Shown: positions 52,478-59,539, numbered from the stretch's first letter. The stretch: 64,000 nt of DNA from Pseudomonadota bacterium (GCA_027487685.1 JAIYDC010000133.1:73325-137324); one strand, 5' to 3'. The notes: generated by a model not told the origin, from the sequence alone. Made by a program: numbers and translations.

Positions 52478-53560
52478 ATGATGACAGAATCTAAGAAGAC
52501 AGTTGTTTTCTTCAACACCAATAAGGCCTGGGGGGGCGGTGAGAAGTGGCACCTCACGACTTGTGGGGAACTCAAGCGCCGTGGGTTTGAAACGATCCTC
52601 GTTGCCAATGACGGCTCTGAGATCGCCAAGCGCGCCACAGCGGAAGGACAAAATGTTTACCGATTCCGTGTCGGGAATATGAGCTTTCTTAATCCCATCA
52701 AGATTTTTATCTTCTTTCTGTTTTTTAAACTTAAAGGGGTCGATGCGGTCATCATGAATCTCCCGGCGGATCTCAAGGTGGCAGGCATTGCGGCCAGGCT
52801 TGCGGGAGTTAAGCGGATAATCTACCGCCGAGGGATGCCTCATCCCCTACGGAACACGGTCCTTAATCGCTTTCTCTTCCAGAAGATCATCACTCACGTT
52901 GTCGTCAACTCCAAAGAAATCGGCCGCAGCCTTAAGCAAGGTAATGAGGCGTGGTTTCCGGAAGAGAAAATGGTCTTGATTTATAATGGGGTCGATACCT
53001 CACGGCCAATTGATAAAAGTCGAAAGCTGTATGAGAAACAAGGCGATGAGATGGTCATCGGAAATGCAGGGAGGCTTACGGAGCAGAAAGGGCAGAAGTA
53101 CCTTGTCGAGCTGGCGAAGCTTTTGAAGTCTGAGGGGATCAAGTTTAAGATCCTTATCGCTGGGGAGGGAGAACTCAGGCAAACGCTTATGAAGCTGATT
53201 GATGAGGCGCGGGTTAAGGAAGAGGTTCGGCTTCTGGGCCATGTGTCGGATATGCCGGCGTTTTTTAACTCCCTGGATGTGTTTGTGTTTACGAGCTTGT
53301 TTGAAGGGTCGGCGAATACGTTGATTGAGACTTTGCAGTATGGGGTGCCGATTGTGGCCTGGGATGTGAGTTCGAATCCGGAGATTGTGGTTGATAGTCA
53401 AAATGGCTTCCTTTCACCTCCGTTTGACGTTCAAGACCTTAAGTTTCAAACTATAAAGCTTCTTAAATACCCGGTCGATTTGACAAAGAACTCAGAATTT
53501 TTAAGGCAACGGTTCGATTACTATCAAAACCTCCAGATCCTTGTAAATTTAGTTATCTAG
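52478..53560 (+). CDS. Glycosyltransferase family 4
   Basis: WGGGEK, IYNGVD, GNAGRLTEQKG, LGHVSDM, SLFEGSANTLIE. Confidence 0.9.
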   Translation: MMTESKKTVVFFNTNKAWGGGEKWHLTTCGELKRRGFETILVANDGSEIAKRATAEGQNVYRFRVGNMSFLNPIKIFIFFLFFKLKGVDAVIMNLPADLKVAGIAARLAGVKRIIYRRGMPHPLRNTVLNRFLFQKIITHVVVNSKEIGRSLKQGNEAWFPEEKMVLIYNGVDTSRPIDKSRKLYEKQGDEMVIGNAGRLTEQKGQKYLVELAKLLKSEGIKFKILIAGEGELRQTLMKLIDEARVKEEVRLLGHVSDMPAFFNSLDVFVFTSLFEGSANTLIETLQYGVPIVAWDVSSNPEIVVDSQNGFLSPPFDVQDLKFQTIKLLKYPVDLTKNSEFLRQRFDYYQNLQILVNLVI

Positions 53561-53633
53561 ATGGCTTTAAAATTTCTAATGTAATAATTTCCAAGAAATC
53601 CATCGAAGAACTGTCCTGAAATATACTTGCTGC

Positions 53634-55133
53634 ATGCTTCGTCTGTCTTGGCCCGTCATTGTCTATGCGCTATCAATTCCCTTGTACGGGAGTGAAGTGA
53701 TTTATAAAAAGAGTGTCTACTCTCTCCCACTAACTTTTGACCCAATAAAAATGAATGACACTGCTTCTCTTTTGGCCAGCAACTTAATTTACGATGGGCT
53801 TGTTCGCTTTGCACCAAATCTAAGAATTGAACCGGCCATAGCTGAAAGCTGGAGATTCTCGGGCGATGGGAAAACTATCACTTTTAAAATTCGCAAAAAC
53901 TTAAAATTTCACAACGGATCTCCTATCTCCGTAGCTGATGTCGTATTTTCATTGAAAAGAAATCTATCCGAGGAGAGTGTCACAAGGAACTATTTCGATT
54001 GTATCGTGGGTTGGAACGAGAAAGGATTTGATGAAGGTATGGGTGGAATCAAGGCTATCTCGAAAGACATCATAGAAATAAAACTAAAGCACCCATACCC
54101 AAATTTCCTCAACATCATGGCAGGAGCGACCGCCAAAGTTCTATCTAAAAGTGAGTTTGAGCGGAATCAGAATTATTTTGTAAGACCTATAGGATCCGGG
54201 CCATTCAGCTTTCACTCCCTCGATGAGAAAAGCAGGCAGGTTAGGCTGGATGCCTCGAAATTCAATTATAGAAAGGCCAAGGTTTCTCTGGATCAACTGT
54301 GGCTCATCGAGAGCGATGAAAAAACAGCAATATCCCTAGCGAAGGCCGGAAAAATAGATGATCTTACAAATTGGCCTATTTCGGGATCAAATGAGGTGTT
54401 CAAATTTGGCAAAAAAATATCAGCACCTGTTAATGGAACTTGGATTATTGGGCTTAATGCAAAGTTGGCACCTTTCAACAAAAAGTCAGTCAGAAAAGCA
54501 TTCAAACGTGACTTTAATACTGAGAATTTTCGAATAAAATTTTATTCTGATTCTTATCCTGCTCTTGGTTATATACCGCCAGGTCTCCCAGGTAACATCG
54601 AAACACCGGAAACGAATTCGTCTGTGGGTGAAGTGAGTAAATCAAAAATCAGGATCTCCATCCCTAAAGAGCTAGAAAAACACGGCGAGATGAAGAAGTT
54701 CGTTGAGAAGATGCTCATTGCGAAGGGCTGGAATGTAGAAGTTGTTCCCATAAAATGGGATGACCTCATTTCAGGTTACTCGGGTAAGAAACTCCAGAGC
54801 TTTTTAGTGGCCATGAACATGGACTACCCTGACCCTGAATTTCTGTTCAAGAACTTTGAATCAAACAACAAAGATAACTTTAGCGGGATAAGCGACAAAG
54901 AGATCGACCAATTGAACTTAGAGCTCAGAACTGAGCCAGATCGATTTAAAAAGATCCCGATCCTAAAACTACTCCGTTCAAAAATCGATGATCAATCAGT
55001 AACGGTTAATCTATTTCATCCTAAAGCAAACTACTGGATTTCTAGCTGTGTAAATGGCTTTAAGCCAAACATTATCTCAGATGTCTATATTGATTATGCC
55101 TCTATCTCCAAGAAGAAGAATTGCAAACCATGA
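53634..55133 (+). CDS. Family-5 (OppA/DppA-like) solute-binding protein, no cognate permease nearby
   Basis: Signal peptide; IYDGLVRF, PAIAESW, TFKIRKNLKFHNG.PI...DV.FS, PIGSGPF, DYPDP. Confidence 0.85.
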   Translation: MLRLSWPVIVYALSIPLYGSEVIYKKSVYSLPLTFDPIKMNDTASLLASNLIYDGLVRFAPNLRIEPAIAESWRFSGDGKTITFKIRKNLKFHNGSPISVADVVFSLKRNLSEESVTRNYFDCIVGWNEKGFDEGMGGIKAISKDIIEIKLKHPYPNFLNIMAGATAKVLSKSEFERNQNYFVRPIGSGPFSFHSLDEKSRQVRLDASKFNYRKAKVSLDQLWLIESDEKTAISLAKAGKIDDLTNWPISGSNEVFKFGKKISAPVNGTWIIGLNAKLAPFNKKSVRKAFKRDFNTENFRIKFYSDSYPALGYIPPGLPGNIETPETNSSVGEVSKSKIRISIPKELEKHGEMKKFVEKMLIAKGWNVEVVPIKWDDLISGYSGKKLQSFLVAMNMDYPDPEFLFKNFESNNKDNFSGISDKEIDQLNLELRTEPDRFKKIPILKLLRSKIDDQSVTVNLFHPKANYWISSCVNGFKPNIISDVYIDYASISKKKNCKP

Positions 55134-56476
55134 CAAAGATATCAATATACGATTACATTAATGGCTCGATTTCTAAAACTAAGTGGCAACTATCGAGCCT
55201 TCTTGCACTCATGTTAACTCTCGTGATGGGTTCAATCACTTTGCGAGACACAGTTTATAATGAGAAAAAAATTCTAGCGGCCTTGGCCCCACATCTTTCC
55301 TACCTCATTACAATTAATGACAGAACAGAAATCATGCGGATTTTATCAACGGTAGATACTCCTGGGACCAATCCCGTTTCTGTCATCAGAAATGGTACGA
55401 TTTATGCCCACTCAATAAATCCAGAGCTCATCGACACAACCATTGCATCTGAAAAATTCATACCTTTATTTGGCGCTAACTTTTCGGCAAAAAAGATCTA
55501 TGTAAAGTATCCGCTTCCATCCGCGGGATCAATTTTGCTACTCGAGCTCAGCCTAAGAAATATACTTACGAAACTAGCGACTTTCATGGGAGGTATCTTT
55601 CTTTTTTCGCTTGGTTGTCTTCAATTCCTATCTTCTAGAGTGGGTAAGCATTTAAGCAAGGTTTTAAAGTCGATCAAAATTCTAGAAAACCAAGTTCAAA
55701 GACTCTCCGATGAAAACCATGAGGAAACAGAGATTGAATTCATAGAGCTCGATAACATCCGAACGGAGCTCAATCGCACTAAAGCAAATCTGACATTGGC
55801 CAAGGAGCTCTTAGCGATCCAGAAGGCGAAAGAGATAAACATGGAAATCTACAAACGGCTGATTCATGACCTTCAAAATCCCATCACTGCTATGAATACA
55901 TTGATTACTCTTCTCGACGAGGAAGACACAGACATTGAGATTAGGAAAGAAGCCCTAGACGCTTTACCTAAAATTGCGGATGAGATTCTATGCCAAATTG
56001 TAGCTACGAAGAAAAATTTTGAGTTCGACACGAACACATTTAAAAGGGTTGATATAAGGAGCTTCATTCAAGAGGCATTAGTGCAAATAAAGTCTACTAA
56101 TCCTGATAACTATCATAAAGTCACATATATCGTTCCAAACTCTCCTGTATACACCGCATGTGATCCTCCATCTCTAAAGAGGGCCGTAATCAACATCCTA
56201 GAAAATGGTTTAGACTTTTCGCGCGAAAAGCTAGAAATCTGGCTTACACAAACTGAGGAATCAACATCCATCCATATCTCTGATGATGGACCGGGGATGG
56301 AAGAGGGCCAATTTGAAGAAATCATGAGAGGAACTACAAGGTCGGGCAAGGGTAACCGGGCTGCACTGGGTCTTTCGTCAGTTAGTCACATACTCAAGAA
56401 TCATAATGGAGTGCTTAAATTTAAAAAGAGCTCTATGGGTGGGTCTGAATTTCAACTTTTGATTGGGGTTTTATGA
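55130..56476 (+). CDS. Membrane sensor histidine kinase
   Basis: Two hydrophobic segments; IHDLQNP (H box), INILENG (N), ISDDGPGM (G1), LGLSSV (G2); ATGA overlap with SBP stop. Confidence 0.9.
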   Translation: MTKISIYDYINGSISKTKWQLSSLLALMLTLVMGSITLRDTVYNEKKILAALAPHLSYLITINDRTEIMRILSTVDTPGTNPVSVIRNGTIYAHSINPELIDTTIASEKFIPLFGANFSAKKIYVKYPLPSAGSILLLELSLRNILTKLATFMGGIFLFSLGCLQFLSSRVGKHLSKVLKSIKILENQVQRLSDENHEETEIEFIELDNIRTELNRTKANLTLAKELLAIQKAKEINMEIYKRLIHDLQNPITAMNTLITLLDEEDTDIEIRKEALDALPKIADEILCQIVATKKNFEFDTNTFKRVDIRSFIQEALVQIKSTNPDNYHKVTYIVPNSPVYTACDPPSLKRAVINILENGLDFSREKLEIWLTQTEESTSIHISDDGPGMEEGQFEEIMRGTTRSGKGNRAALGLSSVSHILKNHNGVLKFKKSSMGGSEFQLLIGVL

Positions 56477-57258
56477 GGGTAACGAAAGTTGGAAAGAACA
56501 GTCAGAACTCTATCATTTTAATACCAGGCGGTCCAGGACTCAGTACGTCTTACCTGCGATCGATGGATCAGCTAAGTGATAAGTATCAACTCCACTATTT
56601 GGACCTATGCGGGACTAATGGAACAGAAGTCGAAATTTTAGATGCAATAAAAATTGCATCTAAAATTAAAGAATATGCCGAGACTATTGAATCAGGCTTC
56701 ACACTTCTTGGTCACTCTTATGGAGGGTATCTCGCTTCCAAAACAGCCACCATCACTTCACCAAGAGCATTGATTTGCATATCGACTCCACTTAGCTCAA
56801 ATTCGATGAATTTCGCTATCGATAATTACTCTCAAAACAGAAGCCGAGAATTAATTGAGAAAGAGGCTCAATGGTTAGCAAATAATTCTGACGATACTTT
56901 CAAGGCCTGGCTGTCATCATATGGAAAACTCTACTTCAATACAAATGACGAGAGATGGAAGGATCTATTTTTAAAAGATAATACTTCATATCGTTTTTTT
57001 CTTAATAATAGTAATGATATTGAAAATGACAAATCAGTACTAATTCATATTGCGAGAACTGATTTTCCCAAACTTTTCATTGCAGGTAATGACGATGCCT
57101 TGATTCCGCCGAGCGTTTTAAAAATCGATGCTGAAGCAGGATCATTCAAATACTCGCCAATTGATAATGCTGGACATTTTCCAATGCTCGAAAATCCTAA
57201 GAGAACTATATCAACTATCGATGACTTCATATCGACCATACCTCCACAAAGGAAATAA
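56473..57258 (+). CDS. Alpha/beta hydrolase, S33 (prolyl aminopeptidase)-like, no signal peptide
   Basis: PGGPG, GHSYGG nucleophile elbow, AGNDD, AGHFPMLE; ATGA overlap with kinase stop. Confidence 0.8.
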   Translation: MRVTKVGKNSQNSIILIPGGPGLSTSYLRSMDQLSDKYQLHYLDLCGTNGTEVEILDAIKIASKIKEYAETIESGFTLLGHSYGGYLASKTATITSPRALICISTPLSSNSMNFAIDNYSQNRSRELIEKEAQWLANNSDDTFKAWLSSYGKLYFNTNDERWKDLFLKDNTSYRFFLNNSNDIENDKSVLIHIARTDFPKLFIAGNDDALIPPSVLKIDAEAGSFKYSPIDNAGHFPMLENPKRTISTIDDFISTIPPQRK

Positions 57259-57260
57259 CC

Positions 57261-57389
57261 ATGAAAACCATCTCACGCTTACTCATTCTCTTCCTTGCTT
57301 TTGCTTCATTAGCGCAAGTTTTAGCTAACCCAAAGGAAGGAGAAATCAACCCCAAATTTCAAGATGGAAATGACAAACCAGGAGTTTAG
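57261..57389 (+). CDS. Unannotated 42-aa secreted peptide precursor
   Basis: MKTISRLLILFLAFASLAQVLA-NPKEGEINPKFQDGNDKPGV; AGGA SD; 2 nt after hydrolase stop and 1 nt before next start; n/h/c signal-peptide layout. Confidence 0.75.
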   Translation: MKTISRLLILFLAFASLAQVLANPKEGEINPKFQDGNDKPGV

Positions 57390-57390
57390 T

Positions 57391-57930
57391 GTGCTTGGTA
57401 ATTATTCTGGTTCTGTAATAATGGCAGTTCTTGCAGTTCTTTCATTTATTAAATGGATGAATACTACTTGGTTTTTTTACCTGCTTCTTGCTTTCAGAGA
57501 TTTGTACCTAGTATTCTTTTTTATAAAAAGGCACGAGGCAACTGTTGTCGCAAATTCTAAGCAAAAAATCATGGCTTATGCATCAAGCGCATTACCTCTC
57601 GTGTATCAGAGCGGATTTGTCACAGCAGAATCTTCGAGAGTTGCGACTTTTTTATTTGTTATTGGATTTACAGTATCGACCCTAGCCTTAGTTGATTTAG
57701 GGTATTCATTTGGTGTCTCTCCAGGCCTGCGTAAACCCATTCGTAATGGGTTATATCGTTTTGTTAGTCATCCTATGTATATTGGCTATTGTATTGCAGA
57801 AATTGGAATGATTATTGTTGCACCTTGTCCAAATGCAGTTATCTTCCTTCTGTCGGTAACTCTTTACTTGGCTAGAGCTTCAGCCGAAAACAATCTCTTA
57901 AAAAGGTACGCACATGAAAGTACTAATTGA
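57391..57930 (+). CDS. Isoprenylcysteine carboxyl methyltransferase (ICMT/PEMT)-like membrane protein
   Basis: Multiple TMs; SFGVSP, GLYRFVSHPMYIGY, RASAENNLL; GTG 57391 with AGGAG SD preferred over 57364. Confidence 0.75.
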   Translation: MLGNYSGSVIMAVLAVLSFIKWMNTTWFFYLLLAFRDLYLVFFFIKRHEATVVANSKQKIMAYASSALPLVYQSGFVTAESSRVATFLFVIGFTVSTLALVDLGYSFGVSPGLRKPIRNGLYRFVSHPMYIGYCIAEIGMIIVAPCPNAVIFLLSVTLYLARASAENNLLKRYAHESTN

Positions 57931-58222
57931 TAACGACAAATTCGTTAAACTAAGTTGGTCATTAAAAGATAAAAAAAACGGAGATTCGTTTTTGAGTTTT
58001 CCAACAGTCGATAGTTTTCTTAGTCAGGCAGAAACTCTTCCATCCAACTCTATTATTTACATCGACTCAAATCTAGACCACGGGATTAAAGGAGAAGTTG
58101 AAGCACAACGAATCAGCGCGCTAGGCTTCTCTAACATCCATCTTTGTACAGGATATGATGATATCGATATTAAAGAATTTCCATGGATCAAAAGCATCGT
58201 TGGAAAAAGCTGTCCGTTTTAA
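57914..58222 (+). CDS. Stand-alone receiver-like domain
   Basis: VLIDND acidic pocket, IYIDSNL (putative phospho-Asp), LCTGY, VGKS; no output domain. Confidence 0.7.
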   Translation: MKVLIDNDKFVKLSWSLKDKKNGDSFLSFPTVDSFLSQAETLPSNSIIYIDSNLDHGIKGEVEAQRISALGFSNIHLCTGYDDIDIKEFPWIKSIVGKSCPF

Positions 58223-58225
58223 GAA

Positions 58226-59539
58226 CTACCGAATCGCCTTCCCAATCGCATAATACTCAAACCCATACTCCAGCACTTTCTTCGTGCTATAGAGGTTCCG
58301 ACCATCAAAGATAACCGGGGATTTTAAGCGCGACTTAATCTCTTCAAAGTCAGGAGCACGGTACTGCTTCCACTCTGTGAGAACCAACAGTCCATCGGCG
58401 CCGTTGAGAGCGTCGTATTTGTTTTCGAATTGATCGACAGGGATTCCCATCTTAACCATCAGTGCTTCAAAGTGATCAGCGGCCTGCGGGTCATGGAACC
58501 GCACTTTCGCACCTGCTTCATGGAGGGCGACAGCCGTATCTATCGCCGGAGTTTCACGGATGTCGTCAGTGTTCGCCTTGAAGGCCGTTCCCCAAATGAC
58601 AAACGTTTTACCCTTGAGGTCGTCCTTGAAGTGTTTCTTCACTTTACTGAAAAGGTATTTCTTCTGCTCTTTGTTCACGAGCTCTACGGCCTCAACGATC
58701 TTGAAGTTAATGCCATGTTCCTTGGCGGTATAGACAAGGGCCTTCACATCTTTCGGGAAGCATGATCCACCGTAGCCTGGGCCCGGATATAGGAACTGAG
58801 ATCCAATGCGGGAGTCAGTTGAAATTCCGTGACGCACTTCTTCCACGTCGGCGCCTACGATATCGCACAGGCGGGCGACTTCATTCATAAATGAAATCTT
58901 CGTGGCAAGGAAGCAGTTGGCGGCATATTTTGTCATCTCAGCAGAGATATTTGACATGCGGATGGTCCGCTTGATCTGACGGTTAAATGGCTCGTAAAGG
59001 TCTTCGATGATCTCCGCTGCCTTATCTTCAATGGAGCCGATGATGATGCGCTCGGGCTTCATGAAATCTTCGACCGCGGATCCCTCTTTCAGAAATTCGG
59101 GGTTGTTCACAACGTAGAAAGTCTTCTTAGTCTTGGACTTTAAGTACTCGCGGACCTTATTCCCGGTTCCAACTGGAACCGTTGACTTAACCACCACAAC
59201 GGTCCCGTCTTGGATGTAGGGCGCGATCGAATCACAGGCACCGAAGACGTATTTTAGATCGGCCTGACCATCATCAGAGGAAGGGGTTCCTACGGCAAGG
59301 AAGACAGCTTCTGCACTGGAGACAGAATTATAATCACTGGAGAAGTGAAGGCGACCTTCCTGAAAATTGGACTGAAGAAGGGCTTCAAGGCCTGGTTCGT
59401 AGATCGGGCACTCGCCTTTTTTCATCTTTTCAACTTTGGCGACGTTTATATCGATACAAGTCACAGTATGACCCATTTCGGCGAAACAAGTTCCAGTTAC
59501 AAGACCAACGTAACCAGTCCCAATAATGCTAAGCTTCAT
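58226..59539 (-). CDS. ugd: UDP-glucose 6-dehydrogenase
   Basis: IGTGYVGL, KSTVPVGT, NPEFLKEG, KYAANCFLATKISF, GYGGSCFPKD, FDGRN. Confidence 0.95.
   Translation of the reverse strand: MKLSIIGTGYVGLVTGTCFAEMGHTVTCIDINVAKVEKMKKGECPIYEPGLEALLQSNFQEGRLHFSSDYNSVSSAEAVFLAVGTPSSDDGQADLKYVFGACDSIAPYIQDGTVVVVKSTVPVGTGNKVREYLKSKTKKTFYVVNNPEFLKEGSAVEDFMKPERIIIGSIEDKAAEIIEDLYEPFNRQIKRTIRMSNISAEMTKYAANCFLATKISFMNEVARLCDIVGADVEEVRHGISTDSRIGSQFLYPGPGYGGSCFPKDVKALVYTAKEHGINFKIVEAVELVNKEQKKYLFSKVKKHFKDDLKGKTFVIWGTAFKANTDDIRETPAIDTAVALHEAGAKVRFHDPQAADHFEALMVKMGIPVDQFENKYDALNGADGLLVLTEWKQYRAPDFEEIKSRLKSPVIFDGRNLYSTKKVLEYGFEYYAIGKAIR

Follow-up and report, generated by a model that had tools for sequence, protein, structure and literature searches.

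Results

Organization of the gene unit

The window, a 64,000-nucleotide stretch of a Pseudomonadota bacterium genome (GCA_027487685.1, JAIYDC010000133.1:73325-137324), contains a unit of six plus-strand genes, all of which were recovered in an ORF scan (Table 1). The binding protein and kinase genes overlap by 13 nt and the kinase and hydrolase genes by 4 nt, a gap of 2 nt separates the hydrolase gene from a small ORF, and the methyltransferase and last ORFs overlap by 17 nt. The methyltransferase ORF overlaps the small ORF by 26 nt in its longest form, or follows it after 1 nt if translation starts at GTG 57391. This GTG is most likely the start, because an AGGAG Shine-Dalgarno sequence lies inside the small ORF and the resulting spacing is the modal one across the family. 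The position of the AGGAG points to translational coupling of the small gene to the methyltransferase gene. The G+C content of the unit is about 38-40%, ranging within it from 0.36 to 0.42, vs about 0.50 in the flanks, and the unit is located at a strain-variable site of a polysaccharide locus. An AT-rich unit of six tightly joined genes, with a Shine-Dalgarno sequence ahead of the small ORF, was thus correctly recognized in the original prediction.

Table 1. Genes and sequence features of the unit, with positions counted from the first nucleotide of the window.
Feature	Position	Strand	Description or basis
SBP_bac_5 protein	53634-55133	+	Orphan periplasmic family-5 protein (DppA/HbpA-like), 499 aa
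Membrane sensor histidine kinase	55121-56476	+	451 aa
Alpha/beta-fold serine hydrolase	56473-57258	+	Cytoplasmic, 261 aa
Shine-Dalgarno AAAGGAA of the small ORF	57248-57254	+	Sequence
Small exported protein, 42 aa	57261-57389	+	ORF, dN/dS, family alignments
Signal peptide of the small protein, residues 1-22	57261-57326	+	Predicted
Mature 20-mer NPKEGEINPKFQDGNDKPGV	57327-57386	+	Predicted from the cleavage candidate
Shine-Dalgarno AGGAG of the methyltransferase gene	57380-57384	+	Within the final codons of the small ORF
ICMT/PEMT-family integral-membrane SAM methyltransferase	57391 (GTG, likely start)-57930	+	Longest ORF from ATG 57364
Stand-alone receiver-fold protein, 102 aa	57914-58222	+	Predicted fold

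A conserved cassette of predatory bacteria

In predatory bacteria, 45 or more related loci carry the small gene between the hydrolase and membrane methyltransferase genes and beside those for the binding protein and the kinase. The gene order binding protein, kinase, sigma-54 response regulator, hydrolase, small protein, methyltransferase (SBP-HK-RR54-ABH-small-ICMT) is conserved in about 40 loci of Bdellovibrionota genomes. The five components other than the regulator were always found together and tightly coupled. From the hydrolase stop to the start of the small ORF the distance is -4 to +17 nt in 41 of 42 loci, a purine- or G-rich Shine-Dalgarno sequence occupies the same place before the small ORF, and the modal distance from its stop to the methyltransferase start is +1 nt. 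Even in a rearranged variant (G005/G023) the trio of hydrolase, small and methyltransferase genes recurs. Cassettes often adjoin mobile-element genes, no neighbour gene outside the cassette is conserved in about 45 loci, and some genomes harbor two cassettes.

In the canonical loci the regulator has a REC-AAA+(Sigma54_activat)-HTH_8 architecture, and 20 of the 24 loci scanned, a set with 22 canonical members, have a -24/-12 element (TGGC-N7-8-YYGC) 35-116 nt (mostly 35-67) upstream of the binding protein gene (expected 0.055 per 260 nt). These loci therefore correspond to NtrC-type sigma-54 two-component operons. The window unit does not, as it has neither a sigma-54 regulator nor a sigma-54-type promoter, and this promoter element is also absent from its closest orthologue (L029). 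It ends in the 102-aa receiver-fold protein in place of the sigma-54 regulator and is a derived variant of the sigma-54-controlled Bdellovibrionota signalling cassette.

The binding protein and the kinase

The window binding protein matches SBP_bac_5 (PF00496) with 161.9 bits (cut-off 32.4), and no equivalog model comes near its cut-off. In the PDB, the cassette profile finds its best relatives in DppA, HbpA and other peptide binders (E 1e-40 to 1e-43), with OppA and PrgZ also among the relatives, and the protein is closest to the DppA/HbpA-type di- and tripeptide binders. Family-5 matches in the PDB also include binders of nickel, opines, haem, glutathione and AI-2. The GD-NGDPD motif, which holds the amino group of the ligand in DppA, has retained its invariant Asp, and D397, C472 and C497 are invariant. 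It is the most conserved protein of the cassette, the window copy being 43-51% identical to those of canonical loci. The window unit encodes no ABC permease or ATPase, and a permease is absent from about 45 related loci as well.

The kinase has two transmembrane segments (about 23-41 and 148-166) and a periplasmic loop of about 105 aa according to hydropathy. HATPase_c is found with 51.5 bits and HisKA below threshold (17.6 bits, cut-off 26.9). The H-box around His249 (H249-D-L-x-x-P) is invariant in 30 orthologues, in which the N- and G-boxes and periplasmic D67, E70 and R73 are conserved along with H249, D250 and P254. The acceptor His and the N- and G-boxes are those of a two-component histidine kinase. 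Since the binding protein always adjoins the kinase, a binding-protein/kinase sensor is plausible. The proposed capture of a peptide by the one and its sensing by the other is in keeping with an orphan DppA/HbpA-like protein at this position.

The lone receiver that had been assigned to the end of the unit is borne out by the predicted fold but not by sequence searches. For the 102-aa protein there was no Pfam match, including the PF00072 receiver model, at E 0.01 or better, and a profile of four homologues found no receiver in the PDB. However, its AlphaFold2 model (pLDDT 86) retrieved receiver domains as all of the top 50 Foldseek matches in the PDB (TM 0.65-0.80), D6, D8, D51, T79 and K98 are invariant in the four homologues, and the protein shares 39% identity with the C-terminal domain that a hybrid kinase of a related cassette (L073) carries. 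The model thus describes a stand-alone (beta/alpha)5 receiver fold with the acidic pocket, the putative phospho-acceptor Asp at the end of beta3, and the Thr (beta4) and Lys (beta5) of that family.

The hydrolase and the methyltransferase

Only generic models pass for the hydrolase (Abhydrolase_6, 47.4 bits; Abhydrolase_1, 41.4 bits). It had been called S33-like, but membership in this prolyl aminopeptidase family is not supported: Hydrolase_4, with a cut-off of 27, gives no more than 17.4 bits. For the proline-iminopeptidase models of NCBIfam the score is 41 bits where 167-500 would be required, and the BioH model does just as well; both give E values of about 1e-10 to 1e-11 and stay far below family cut-offs. 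The best PDB match has an E value of 4e-5. The GGPG (residues 19-22), GHS82YGG and H235 motifs are conserved in orthologues, and with the GGPG motif and the Ser and His residues in place the enzyme looks active, though it is not demonstrably a peptidase. There is no signal peptide, nor room for one ahead of the GGPG motif. Therefore, the hydrolase is cytoplasmic and could not directly reset a periplasmic signal, the role originally given to it.

The methyltransferase passes PF04140 (35.7 bits, cut-off 24), scores 34.7 bits with PF04191, and its profile matches PDB entries 4A2N and 5VG9. Across 46 ICMT orthologues, H136-P-M-Y139 and E175, with the SAM-binding His and Glu, and the carboxylate-binding R171 reach 95% conservation or more, which places it in the ICMT family (PF04140); the roles of the conserved His and Glu are those reported for RhlM/Ma-MTase (PMC11069360). 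A true ICMT/Ste14 function, which calls for a CaaX-derived substrate with a prenylated Cys at its C-terminus, is not supported: isopcys_mtase (NCBIfam) gives 21 bits against a cut-off of 160, and the mature window protein and most family members contain no Cys. The C-terminal tail ...Y..Y...R.RL.PG[VI][FYW], found in bacterial and archaeal relatives, is missing from the cassette enzymes, which end 5-15 residues past the catalytic Glu, whereas non-cassette relatives (L076-L104) are about 25 residues longer. By homology, the active site is expected to face the cytoplasm, so that methylation could only precede export. The ICMT-like assignment therefore stands, while the peptide methylation attached to it is confined to the time before export. 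The family performs carboxyl methylation of amphiphilic substrates, and its only characterised bacterial member methylates a glycolipid and not a peptide (PMC11069360).

RhlM sets a precedent for a different role, in which the kinase senses a lipid-like methyl-ester signal formed by the methyltransferase and cleaved by the hydrolase, comparable to methyl esters of rhamnolipids or, in the Ralstonia phc system, of 3-hydroxy fatty acids, and the small protein is a carrier or unrelated. Both enzymes are cytoplasmic or membrane-located, and the hydrolase resembles methyl-ester esterases and lipases, albeit with a low score. Nevertheless, we consider this role improbable: it explains neither the universal small gene nor its invariant tail, the binding protein belongs with the peptide binders of DppA type, and the cassette contains no lipid-biosynthesis gene.

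The small, probably exported protein

The 42-codon ORF is a genuine, conserved gene whose small product is predicted to be exported. Comparison with L029 gave a dN/dS of 0.11, indicating purifying selection, and the other two frames are closed. The original prediction was staked on homologous loci carrying the small ORF, and a signal-peptide ORF was indeed found at this position in each of the 47 related loci whose slot is readable. Its description as unannotated agrees with the absence of the exact 42-aa sequence from a collection of about 15 billion proteins. Signal peptides were assigned by heuristic rules only (charge, hydropathy and cleavage rules), namely a positive n-region, an uncharged h-region of some 12 residues or more, small side chains at -3/-1 and no lipobox Cys. 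The window protein has an n-region charge of +2 (MK..R), an uncharged run at residues 7-24, a cleavage candidate after residue 22 (between VLA and N) and no Cys. This predicted Sec-type (SPase I) layout, which had been noticed originally, is shared by 45 of 45 family members.

The 20 polar residues of the predicted mature part, with NPK twice and three Pro as described, had been pointed out originally. However, the NPK repeat is not kept in the two closest orthologues, in which KF-x-EGNDKPGV is the conserved part, and family-wide the conserved element is the extreme C-terminus together with the signal helix and not this polar stretch. Pro stands at position -3 in 47 of 47 proteins, Gly at -2 in 39 and Ile or Val at -1 in 44 (Pro-Gly-Val in the window), encoded by different codons among loci, and the tail is predicted to be disordered. 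K2, L12/A13 and Gln19 of the signal helix are invariant, and five columns of the signal region are at least 90% conserved, vs one in that of the binding protein from the same loci. The middle varies in sequence and in length, from about 10 to about 90 residues. Two size classes, short (37-56 aa) and long (104-118 aa), share only the signal helix and the C-terminus; genomes with two cassettes have one of each. The long forms contain a helical domain of about 75 aa in a model of low confidence (pLDDT 68), and their presence in the same slot argues against a simple short pheromone.

Discussion

The constant place of a small exported protein gene beside hydrolase, methyltransferase, binding protein and kinase genes identifies the whole as an undescribed signalling cassette. 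As anticipated in the original prediction, no published description of such a system was found. Our preferred, though tentative, explanation is that the exported tail is a self-made ligand of the DppA-like binding protein and the kinase. The small protein would be exported, and its flexible C-terminal tail bound either intact or after trimming to an aminopeptidase-resistant x-Pro-Gly-Ile/Val stub. The tail-loaded binding protein would then switch the kinase. In the canonical form the kinase would phosphorylate the sigma-54 activator, which drives the whole operon, and a self-produced (autocrine or quorum-like) feedback loop of either positive or negative sign is therefore proposed; in the window form the signal would pass to the single-domain receiver. 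The methyltransferase and the hydrolase would act on the cytoplasmic side, where they might methyl-esterify and de-esterify the C-terminal carboxylate of the precursor before export, in which case the tail may be methylated, or else act on some amphiphilic co-substrate.

A self-made ligand is favored by the conserved gene order, the universal small ORF with its tail, purifying selection, signal-peptide layout and well-conserved signal region, the tight coupling, the conserved DppA-like protein without a permease, the sigma-54 element, the disordered tail and the double cassettes. On the other hand, the tail is conserved across species, whereas pheromones diversify in the peptide quorum-sensing systems known so far, and the long forms resemble small periplasmic proteins more than pheromones. 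Both enzymes face the cytoplasm, which makes their link to a periplasmic ligand indirect, and the glycolipid substrate of the characterised bacterial relative as well as the other ligands of family-5 proteins also count against it. No clear signal of residues co-varying with Gly/Thr at position -2 of the tail was detected in the binding protein, kinase, hydrolase or methyltransferase.

The same conserved, non-diversified tail, the unusually conserved N-terminal helix of short and long forms alike and the helical domain of the long forms would also suit an accessory kinase regulator, anchored in the membrane or located in the periplasm, instead of a diffusible signal, with the binding protein sensing a non-self ligand such as di- and tripeptides from prey. 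As in MgrB-PhoQ and CpxP-CpxA, a small exported or membrane protein would be expressed under the system that it may modulate, since in the canonical cassette the small gene shares a transcript with the kinase gene, driven by an autoregulated sigma-54 promoter, and this same-operon product would feed back on the sensor through its helix, its tail or both. We regard this as possible but rather unlikely. Cleavage candidates at -3/-1 in all 45 members favor release from the membrane, the long-form model is of low confidence, and the constant wedging and coupling between the hydrolase and methyltransferase genes would be left unexplained. MgrB and CpxP have no sequence or fold relation to the small protein, and their systems lack a binding protein, methyltransferase, hydrolase and conserved C-terminal tripeptide.

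That coupling, with its tight stop-start junction and the trio kept upon rearrangement, raises the alternative that the small protein is a substrate or subunit of the ICMT-like enzyme. The signal helix would hold the precursor at the membrane, its Ile/Val carboxylate would be methyl-esterified with the hydrolase as opposing methylesterase, in analogy to LCMT-1/PME-1 of PP2A and to ICMT/ICME, and the ester would determine whether the protein is exported, is stable or is recognized by the binding protein. The enzyme belongs to a family that methylates carboxyl groups of amphiphiles (PMC11069360) and keeps the residues that bind SAM and the carboxylate, and the hydrolase matches esterase (BioH) models besides peptidase models. 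Moreover, the tail lost from the cassette enzymes, of the type ...RL-x-PG[VI][FYW], resembles the PG[IV] end of the small protein, but over three residues this may be due to chance. Modification would have to occur ahead of Sec export, and the mature window protein and most family members have neither a Cys nor a prenylation signal. We know of no bacterial ICMT-family enzyme with an established peptide substrate, and we judge this alternative unlikely.

The preferred self-ligand explanation has its closest parallel in the Rap-Phr and Opp (Spo0K) system of Bacillus subtilis, with precursors of about 40 aa that carry a Sec signal peptide and a functional extreme C-terminus, recognition of the peptide by a family-5 binding protein, and potentially several paralogous cassettes per genome, often on mobile elements. 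In contrast, no TPR/RRNPP protein or permease was found among the six window products or the conserved cassette genes, and membership in Rap-Phr/RRNPP, which combines a cytoplasmic TPR receptor with Opp import, was rejected. The partner of the binding protein is a membrane kinase instead, the tail is conserved and not diversified, long forms occur, an ICMT-like methyltransferase and a hydrolase are integral, and the hosts are Gram-negative Bdellovibrionota. The enterococcal pheromone plasmids also combine a mobile-element family-5 protein, PrgZ, with a tiny co-encoded precursor (cCF10/iCF10) whose C-terminal residues form the active peptide. However, PrgZ passes the peptide to the host Opp permease for the cytoplasmic receptor PrgX, without a kinase or methyltransferase and in a different phylum. 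An orphan periplasmic binding protein gene beside that of a membrane kinase, its presumed partner in ligand binding, is also seen in LuxP-LuxQ (AI-2) and TorT-TorS, but LuxP and TorT come from other families, bind small molecules made elsewhere, and are accompanied by no co-encoded ribosomal ligand, methyltransferase or hydrolase.

With yeast a-factor (Ste14/ICMT) and bacterial RhlM the cassette shares an ICMT-family membrane carboxyl methyltransferase encoded with, or acting on, a signalling or amphiphilic molecule. Unlike the small protein, with its Sec signal and without Cys, a-factor depends on a prenylated Cys and on export by an ABC transporter; RhlM methylates rhamnolipid, and the cassette enzyme differs from both in lacking the C-terminal tail of the family. 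It is tempting to speculate, as a long shot, that this is a mobile, paralogue-forming system of cell-to-cell control by a Sec-exported ribosomal peptide with a reversibly methyl-esterified C-terminal carboxylate. The truncated ICMT-family enzyme and an alpha/beta-hydrolase esterase would modify the peptide before export, and its x-Pro-Gly-Ile/Val end would be read outside the cell by the orphan DppA-like protein and the histidine kinase. If true, the Bdellovibrionota, as Gram-negative predators, would possess a quorum-type control without a described equivalent in any bacterium, and with it a prokaryotic, prenyl-free counterpart of yeast a-factor maturation.

Gene content and surroundings of the unit

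The original prediction described a compact, AT-rich unit of six genes, and both parts of this description hold: six ORFs lie on the + strand, overlapping or 1-2 nt apart, and G+C is 0.36-0.42 inside the unit versus about 0.50 in the flanks. The flanks form a surface-polysaccharide locus with a GT1/GT4 glycosyltransferase, a UDP-glucose dehydrogenase, Wzy_C, a sugar transferase and an epimerase. Around the unit, no direct or inverted repeats of the insertion-marking kind were found, and Rfam detected no known RNA element. Within the hydrolase gene, at 56634-56667, lies a perfect inverted repeat (AATTTTAGATGCAAT/ATTGCATCTAAAATT) with arms of 15 nt and a loop of 4 nt.

The unit had been predicted to start at 53622, which agrees with neither ATG 53634 nor CTG 53616. 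The ATG start of the orthologous binding-protein gene at locus L029 (MKYTRAM...) is CTG at 53616 in the window, and therefore the window gene probably starts at ATG 53634; no obvious Shine-Dalgarno sequence precedes this ATG. For the methyltransferase, GTG 57391 is the likely start because +1 nt is the modal distance between the small-ORF stop and the methyltransferase start in the family; AGGAG at 57380-57384 precedes this codon.

Genes of the unit in the window, with Pfam/NCBIfam assignments
Feature	Position	Strand	Match
Family-5 binding protein	53634-55133 (probable start)	+	SBP_bac_5, 161.9 bits
Histidine kinase	55121-56476	+	HATPase_c
Alpha/beta hydrolase	56473-57258	+	Abhydrolase_6/1
42-aa ORF	57261-57389	+	no match
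ICMT/PEMT-like membrane protein	GTG 57391 (likely start)-57930	+	ICMT model, 35.7 bits
102-aa ORF	57914-58222	+	no match; receiver by predicted fold

A cassette of the Bdellovibrionota

An alignment of the methyltransferase, scanned against one genome per prokaryotic species, gave about 47 loci, all labelled Bdellovibrionota or evidently mis-binned short contigs. The canonical order is binding protein, kinase, NtrC-type sigma-54 regulator (REC-AAA+-HTH_8), hydrolase, small ORF and methyltransferase, and the genes are tightly coupled, with -4 to +17 nt between the hydrolase stop and the small-ORF start in 41/42 loci. In our reading, a two-component sensor would here have an exported ligand or modulator that the cassette itself encodes. 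The source organism of the window is an uncultured Bacteriovoracaceae-like MAG, and all functional statements on the cassette are based on comparative genomics and predicted structure. One carrier is in culture, B. bacteriovorus strain Bd5 (L040).

In a tree of hydrolase and methyltransferase, the window clade is a long branch within the group that has the short form of the small protein, and short and long forms interchange at least three times. Some genomes harbor two paralogous cassettes (L046 and L049, in one MAG; L054 and L060; L050 and L058; L031 and L033), and one such genome encodes one short-form and one long-form small protein, an arrangement that recalls multiple peptide systems in parallel. 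At L028 (G029:C52 1355-3360), from the same genus as the window, a distant family-5 protein (26% identity) adjoins a distant ICMT-like gene (26%), and this pair may be another variant of the cassette theme.

A sigma-54-type -24/-12 element (e.g. TGGCACAACACTCGCA) precedes the binding-protein gene at 20 of 24 loci, 22 of the 24 being canonical, at a distance of 35-116 nt, mostly 35-67 nt; the expected background is 0.055 per 260 nt. Since the canonical unit that bears this promoter type also encodes a sigma-54 activator, its sequence is most simply read as that of an autoregulated cassette. Both the activator and the promoter are missing from the window and from L029: upstream of 53634 no sigma-54 element was found, and scans of the window copy for sigma-70 promoters and terminators gave scores at shuffle level.

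Downstream of canonical cassettes, genes of mobile elements are often found: a resolvase (PF00239) at L043, L045 and L040/L041/L044, where it starts 3 nt before the methyltransferase stop; an IS91-type transposase (Y2_Tnp) at L040, L041 and L045; and TraC/VirB4-like genes (TraG/TraC P-loop) at L035, L038, L049, L057, L060 and L062. Apart from these, the cassette has no conserved neighbour, and therefore it ends at the methyltransferase and tends to ride mobile DNA.

The small ORF encodes a conserved protein with a predicted export signal

At two loci of the same genus, L029 (genome G010) and L030 (G022), this six-gene unit recurs and is flanked by the same genes. Identity of the 42-aa ORF to that of the window is 79% and 57%, respectively, which at least equals the 49-75% of the neighbouring enzymes. 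Compared with L029, the small ORF has a dS of 1.13 and a dN of 0.13 (dN/dS 0.11), and the remaining two frames are closed in all three genomes. Inspection of the hydrolase-methyltransferase gap of related loci, proposed in the original prediction as a check, revealed a + strand signal-peptide ORF in 47/47 readable gaps, window included. The low dN/dS, the closed frames and the presence of a member at every one of these loci led us to reject a chance ORF, and on this comparative evidence the 42-aa ORF is a real gene. It had been called an unannotated precursor, and its exact sequence was indeed found in no public protein set; relatives are named 'hypothetical protein' in the databases, with one evident misannotation as 'RecN', and the small protein gave no Pfam or NCBIfam hit.

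The Shine-Dalgarno sequence (AAAGGAA) is present as claimed, and the signal peptide is upheld as a prediction, with a tripartite layout and a VLA|N site after residue 22. At the same loci, the signal region of the small protein shows stronger conservation than that of the binding protein. The small proteins are of two classes, short (37-56 aa) and long (104-118 aa, with a helical middle), which have only two features in common: an N-terminal helix with invariant K2, L12/A13 and Gln19, and the last three residues, of which -3 is Pro in 47/47, -2 is Gly in 39/47 and -1 is Ile/Val in 44/47. Further short-form members from a profile search have the same ending. The tail codons differ between loci (CCA GGA GTT, CCT GGT ATT, CCT GGA ATC); thus, the constraint acts on the protein and not on an overlapping ribosome-binding site. 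Position -2 of the tail (Gly versus Thr, in three independent clades) was compared with residues of the binding protein, kinase, response regulator, hydrolase and methyltransferase, and no convincing convergent column emerged. The predicted structure of the long form, helical with a disordered tail, is of too low confidence for a fold search (pLDDT 68).

Potentially, the exported small protein's tail is the ligand of the DppA-like binding protein, which would in turn control the kinase, and the two enzymes would act on the carboxylate of the precursor or on another amphiphile; we regard this reading as tentative, with somewhat less than even chances. Alternatively, the small protein might act as a non-diffusible feedback protein like MgrB or CpxP, which seems doubtful to us.

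Binding protein, kinase and enzymes

The binding protein is the best conserved part of the window unit, with 43-51% identity to canonical loci versus 24-32% for the kinase, and its profile is closest to di- and tripeptide binders of the DppA/HbpA type. Asp397 of the binding protein (MDYPDP) is invariant and corresponds to the Asp in the GD-NGDPD motif, the residue that binds the alpha-amino group of the ligand in the DppA structure. Two of its Cys residues are likewise invariant, and a partner permease is absent. In the kinase, the H-box is intact, and besides two TM segments there is a periplasmic loop of about 105 residues that includes a conserved D67/E70/R73 patch. X-Pro bonds are not cut by ordinary aminopeptidases, and the disordered tail could serve as ligand either intact or trimmed down to this bond.

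The hydrolase harbors GGPG at residues 19-22, GHS82YGG and His235; it has no signal peptide and is therefore cytoplasmic. Its assignment as an S33-like peptidase could not be established, with Hydrolase_4 sub-threshold and BioH-type esterase and proline-iminopeptidase models equally low. In the form first proposed, a step in which a peptidase resets the signal is unlikely: the hydrolase is located in the cytoplasm, and no importer is encoded in the cassette. Both enzymes face the cytoplasm, where they might condition the C-terminal carboxylate of the precursor.

The methyltransferase retains Arg171 and the His (HPMY) and Glu that bind SAM in RhlM and in the archaeal enzyme (PMC11069360). Among the bacterial members of the family, only RhlM has a known substrate, the rhamnolipids, whose carboxyl group it methylates (PMC11069360). 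By analogy, the two enzymes could make and degrade a lipid methyl-ester signal, which we consider very unlikely. The cassette falls outside the definition of true ICMT action, as no prenyl-Cys substrate is present.

The cassette methyltransferase lacks the roughly 25-residue C-terminal tail of its non-cassette relatives. Such relatives (L076-L104, from Alphaproteobacteria, Acidobacteriota, Bathyarchaeia and others) end in ...R-x-R-L-x-P-G/F-[VI]-[FYW]. At its end the lost tail has PG[VI] plus an aromatic residue, and P-G-[IV] is the end of the small protein, whose gene lies just upstream. The resemblance could be a coincidence, or the tail of the small protein could sit in the vacated site. 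In a further alternative, which overlaps with the ligand reading and which we judge unlikely, the small protein would be a substrate or subunit of the methyltransferase and the hydrolase an esterase. The chance that the cassette harbors new chemistry, with an ICMT-family enzyme forming a methyl ester at the C-terminus of a peptide, is modest.

Relation to known signalling systems

By analogy, the nearest known logic is that of Phr/Opp combined with LuxP-LuxQ-type sensing. The cassette shares a signal-peptide precursor and a family-5 binder with Phr/Opp, in which the C-terminal end of the precursor is the active part, but the defining Rap/TPR receptor and permease are absent. Like LuxP-LuxQ it would sense via a binding protein and a kinase; however, the binding-protein family and the source of the ligand differ. 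The literature search found no publication that describes the cassette, in agreement with the original prediction, to which no described system of this composition in a Gram-negative predator was known.

Peptide-based self-signalling is regarded as a Gram-positive trait, and little is known about how predatory Bdellovibrio-like bacteria perceive each other or their prey. For such sensing the cassette offers a concrete and conserved candidate that lends itself to experiments, with a small protein that has a three-residue invariant end, a purifiable binding protein and a sigma-54 promoter usable as reporter. It would also give bacterial ICMT-family methyltransferases a second, very different context.

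A receiver-fold protein at a variable polysaccharide site

The lone receiver of the original prediction is supported by the predicted fold of the 102-aa product (pLDDT 86), whose 50 best PDB matches are all receiver domains (TM 0.65-0.80), and not by sequence, where Pfam and PDB profiles failed. D6/D8, D51, T79 and K98 are conserved. The product shares 39% identity with the C-terminal domain of a hybrid kinase at L073, a variant with the order binding protein, hydrolase, 42-aa ORF, methyltransferase and hybrid kinase.

Within the genus, the site between glycosyltransferase and UDP-glucose dehydrogenase (window 52478-59539) varies between strains, as compared at L122 (G005), L123 (G023), L124 (G011), L125 (G031), L126 (G033) and L127 (G015). 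G005 and G023 carry a hydrolase, a 42-aa signal-peptide ORF ending in GQSEPQ or GNGEPH, an ICMT domain with about 450 extra residues and a kinase-receiver fusion. At L122 2890-5674 and L123 2847-5636 (both - strand), a protein of 633-640 aa has the ICMT domain as its N-terminal third. The extra residues share a YSLP...IY motif (YSL-P...IY) with the cassette binding protein (BLASTP E 0.022); their identity as a binding-protein domain was not supported (hhalign probability 1.5%). In G011, another family-5 protein and a 304-aa unknown accompany a kinase and the receiver, and in G031 and G015 the site holds a kinase and the receiver. The receiver beside the dehydrogenase gene is the constant element (33-46% identical between strains), and the sensing modules ahead of it differ, which points to an exchange of sensor modules on one constant receiver output.
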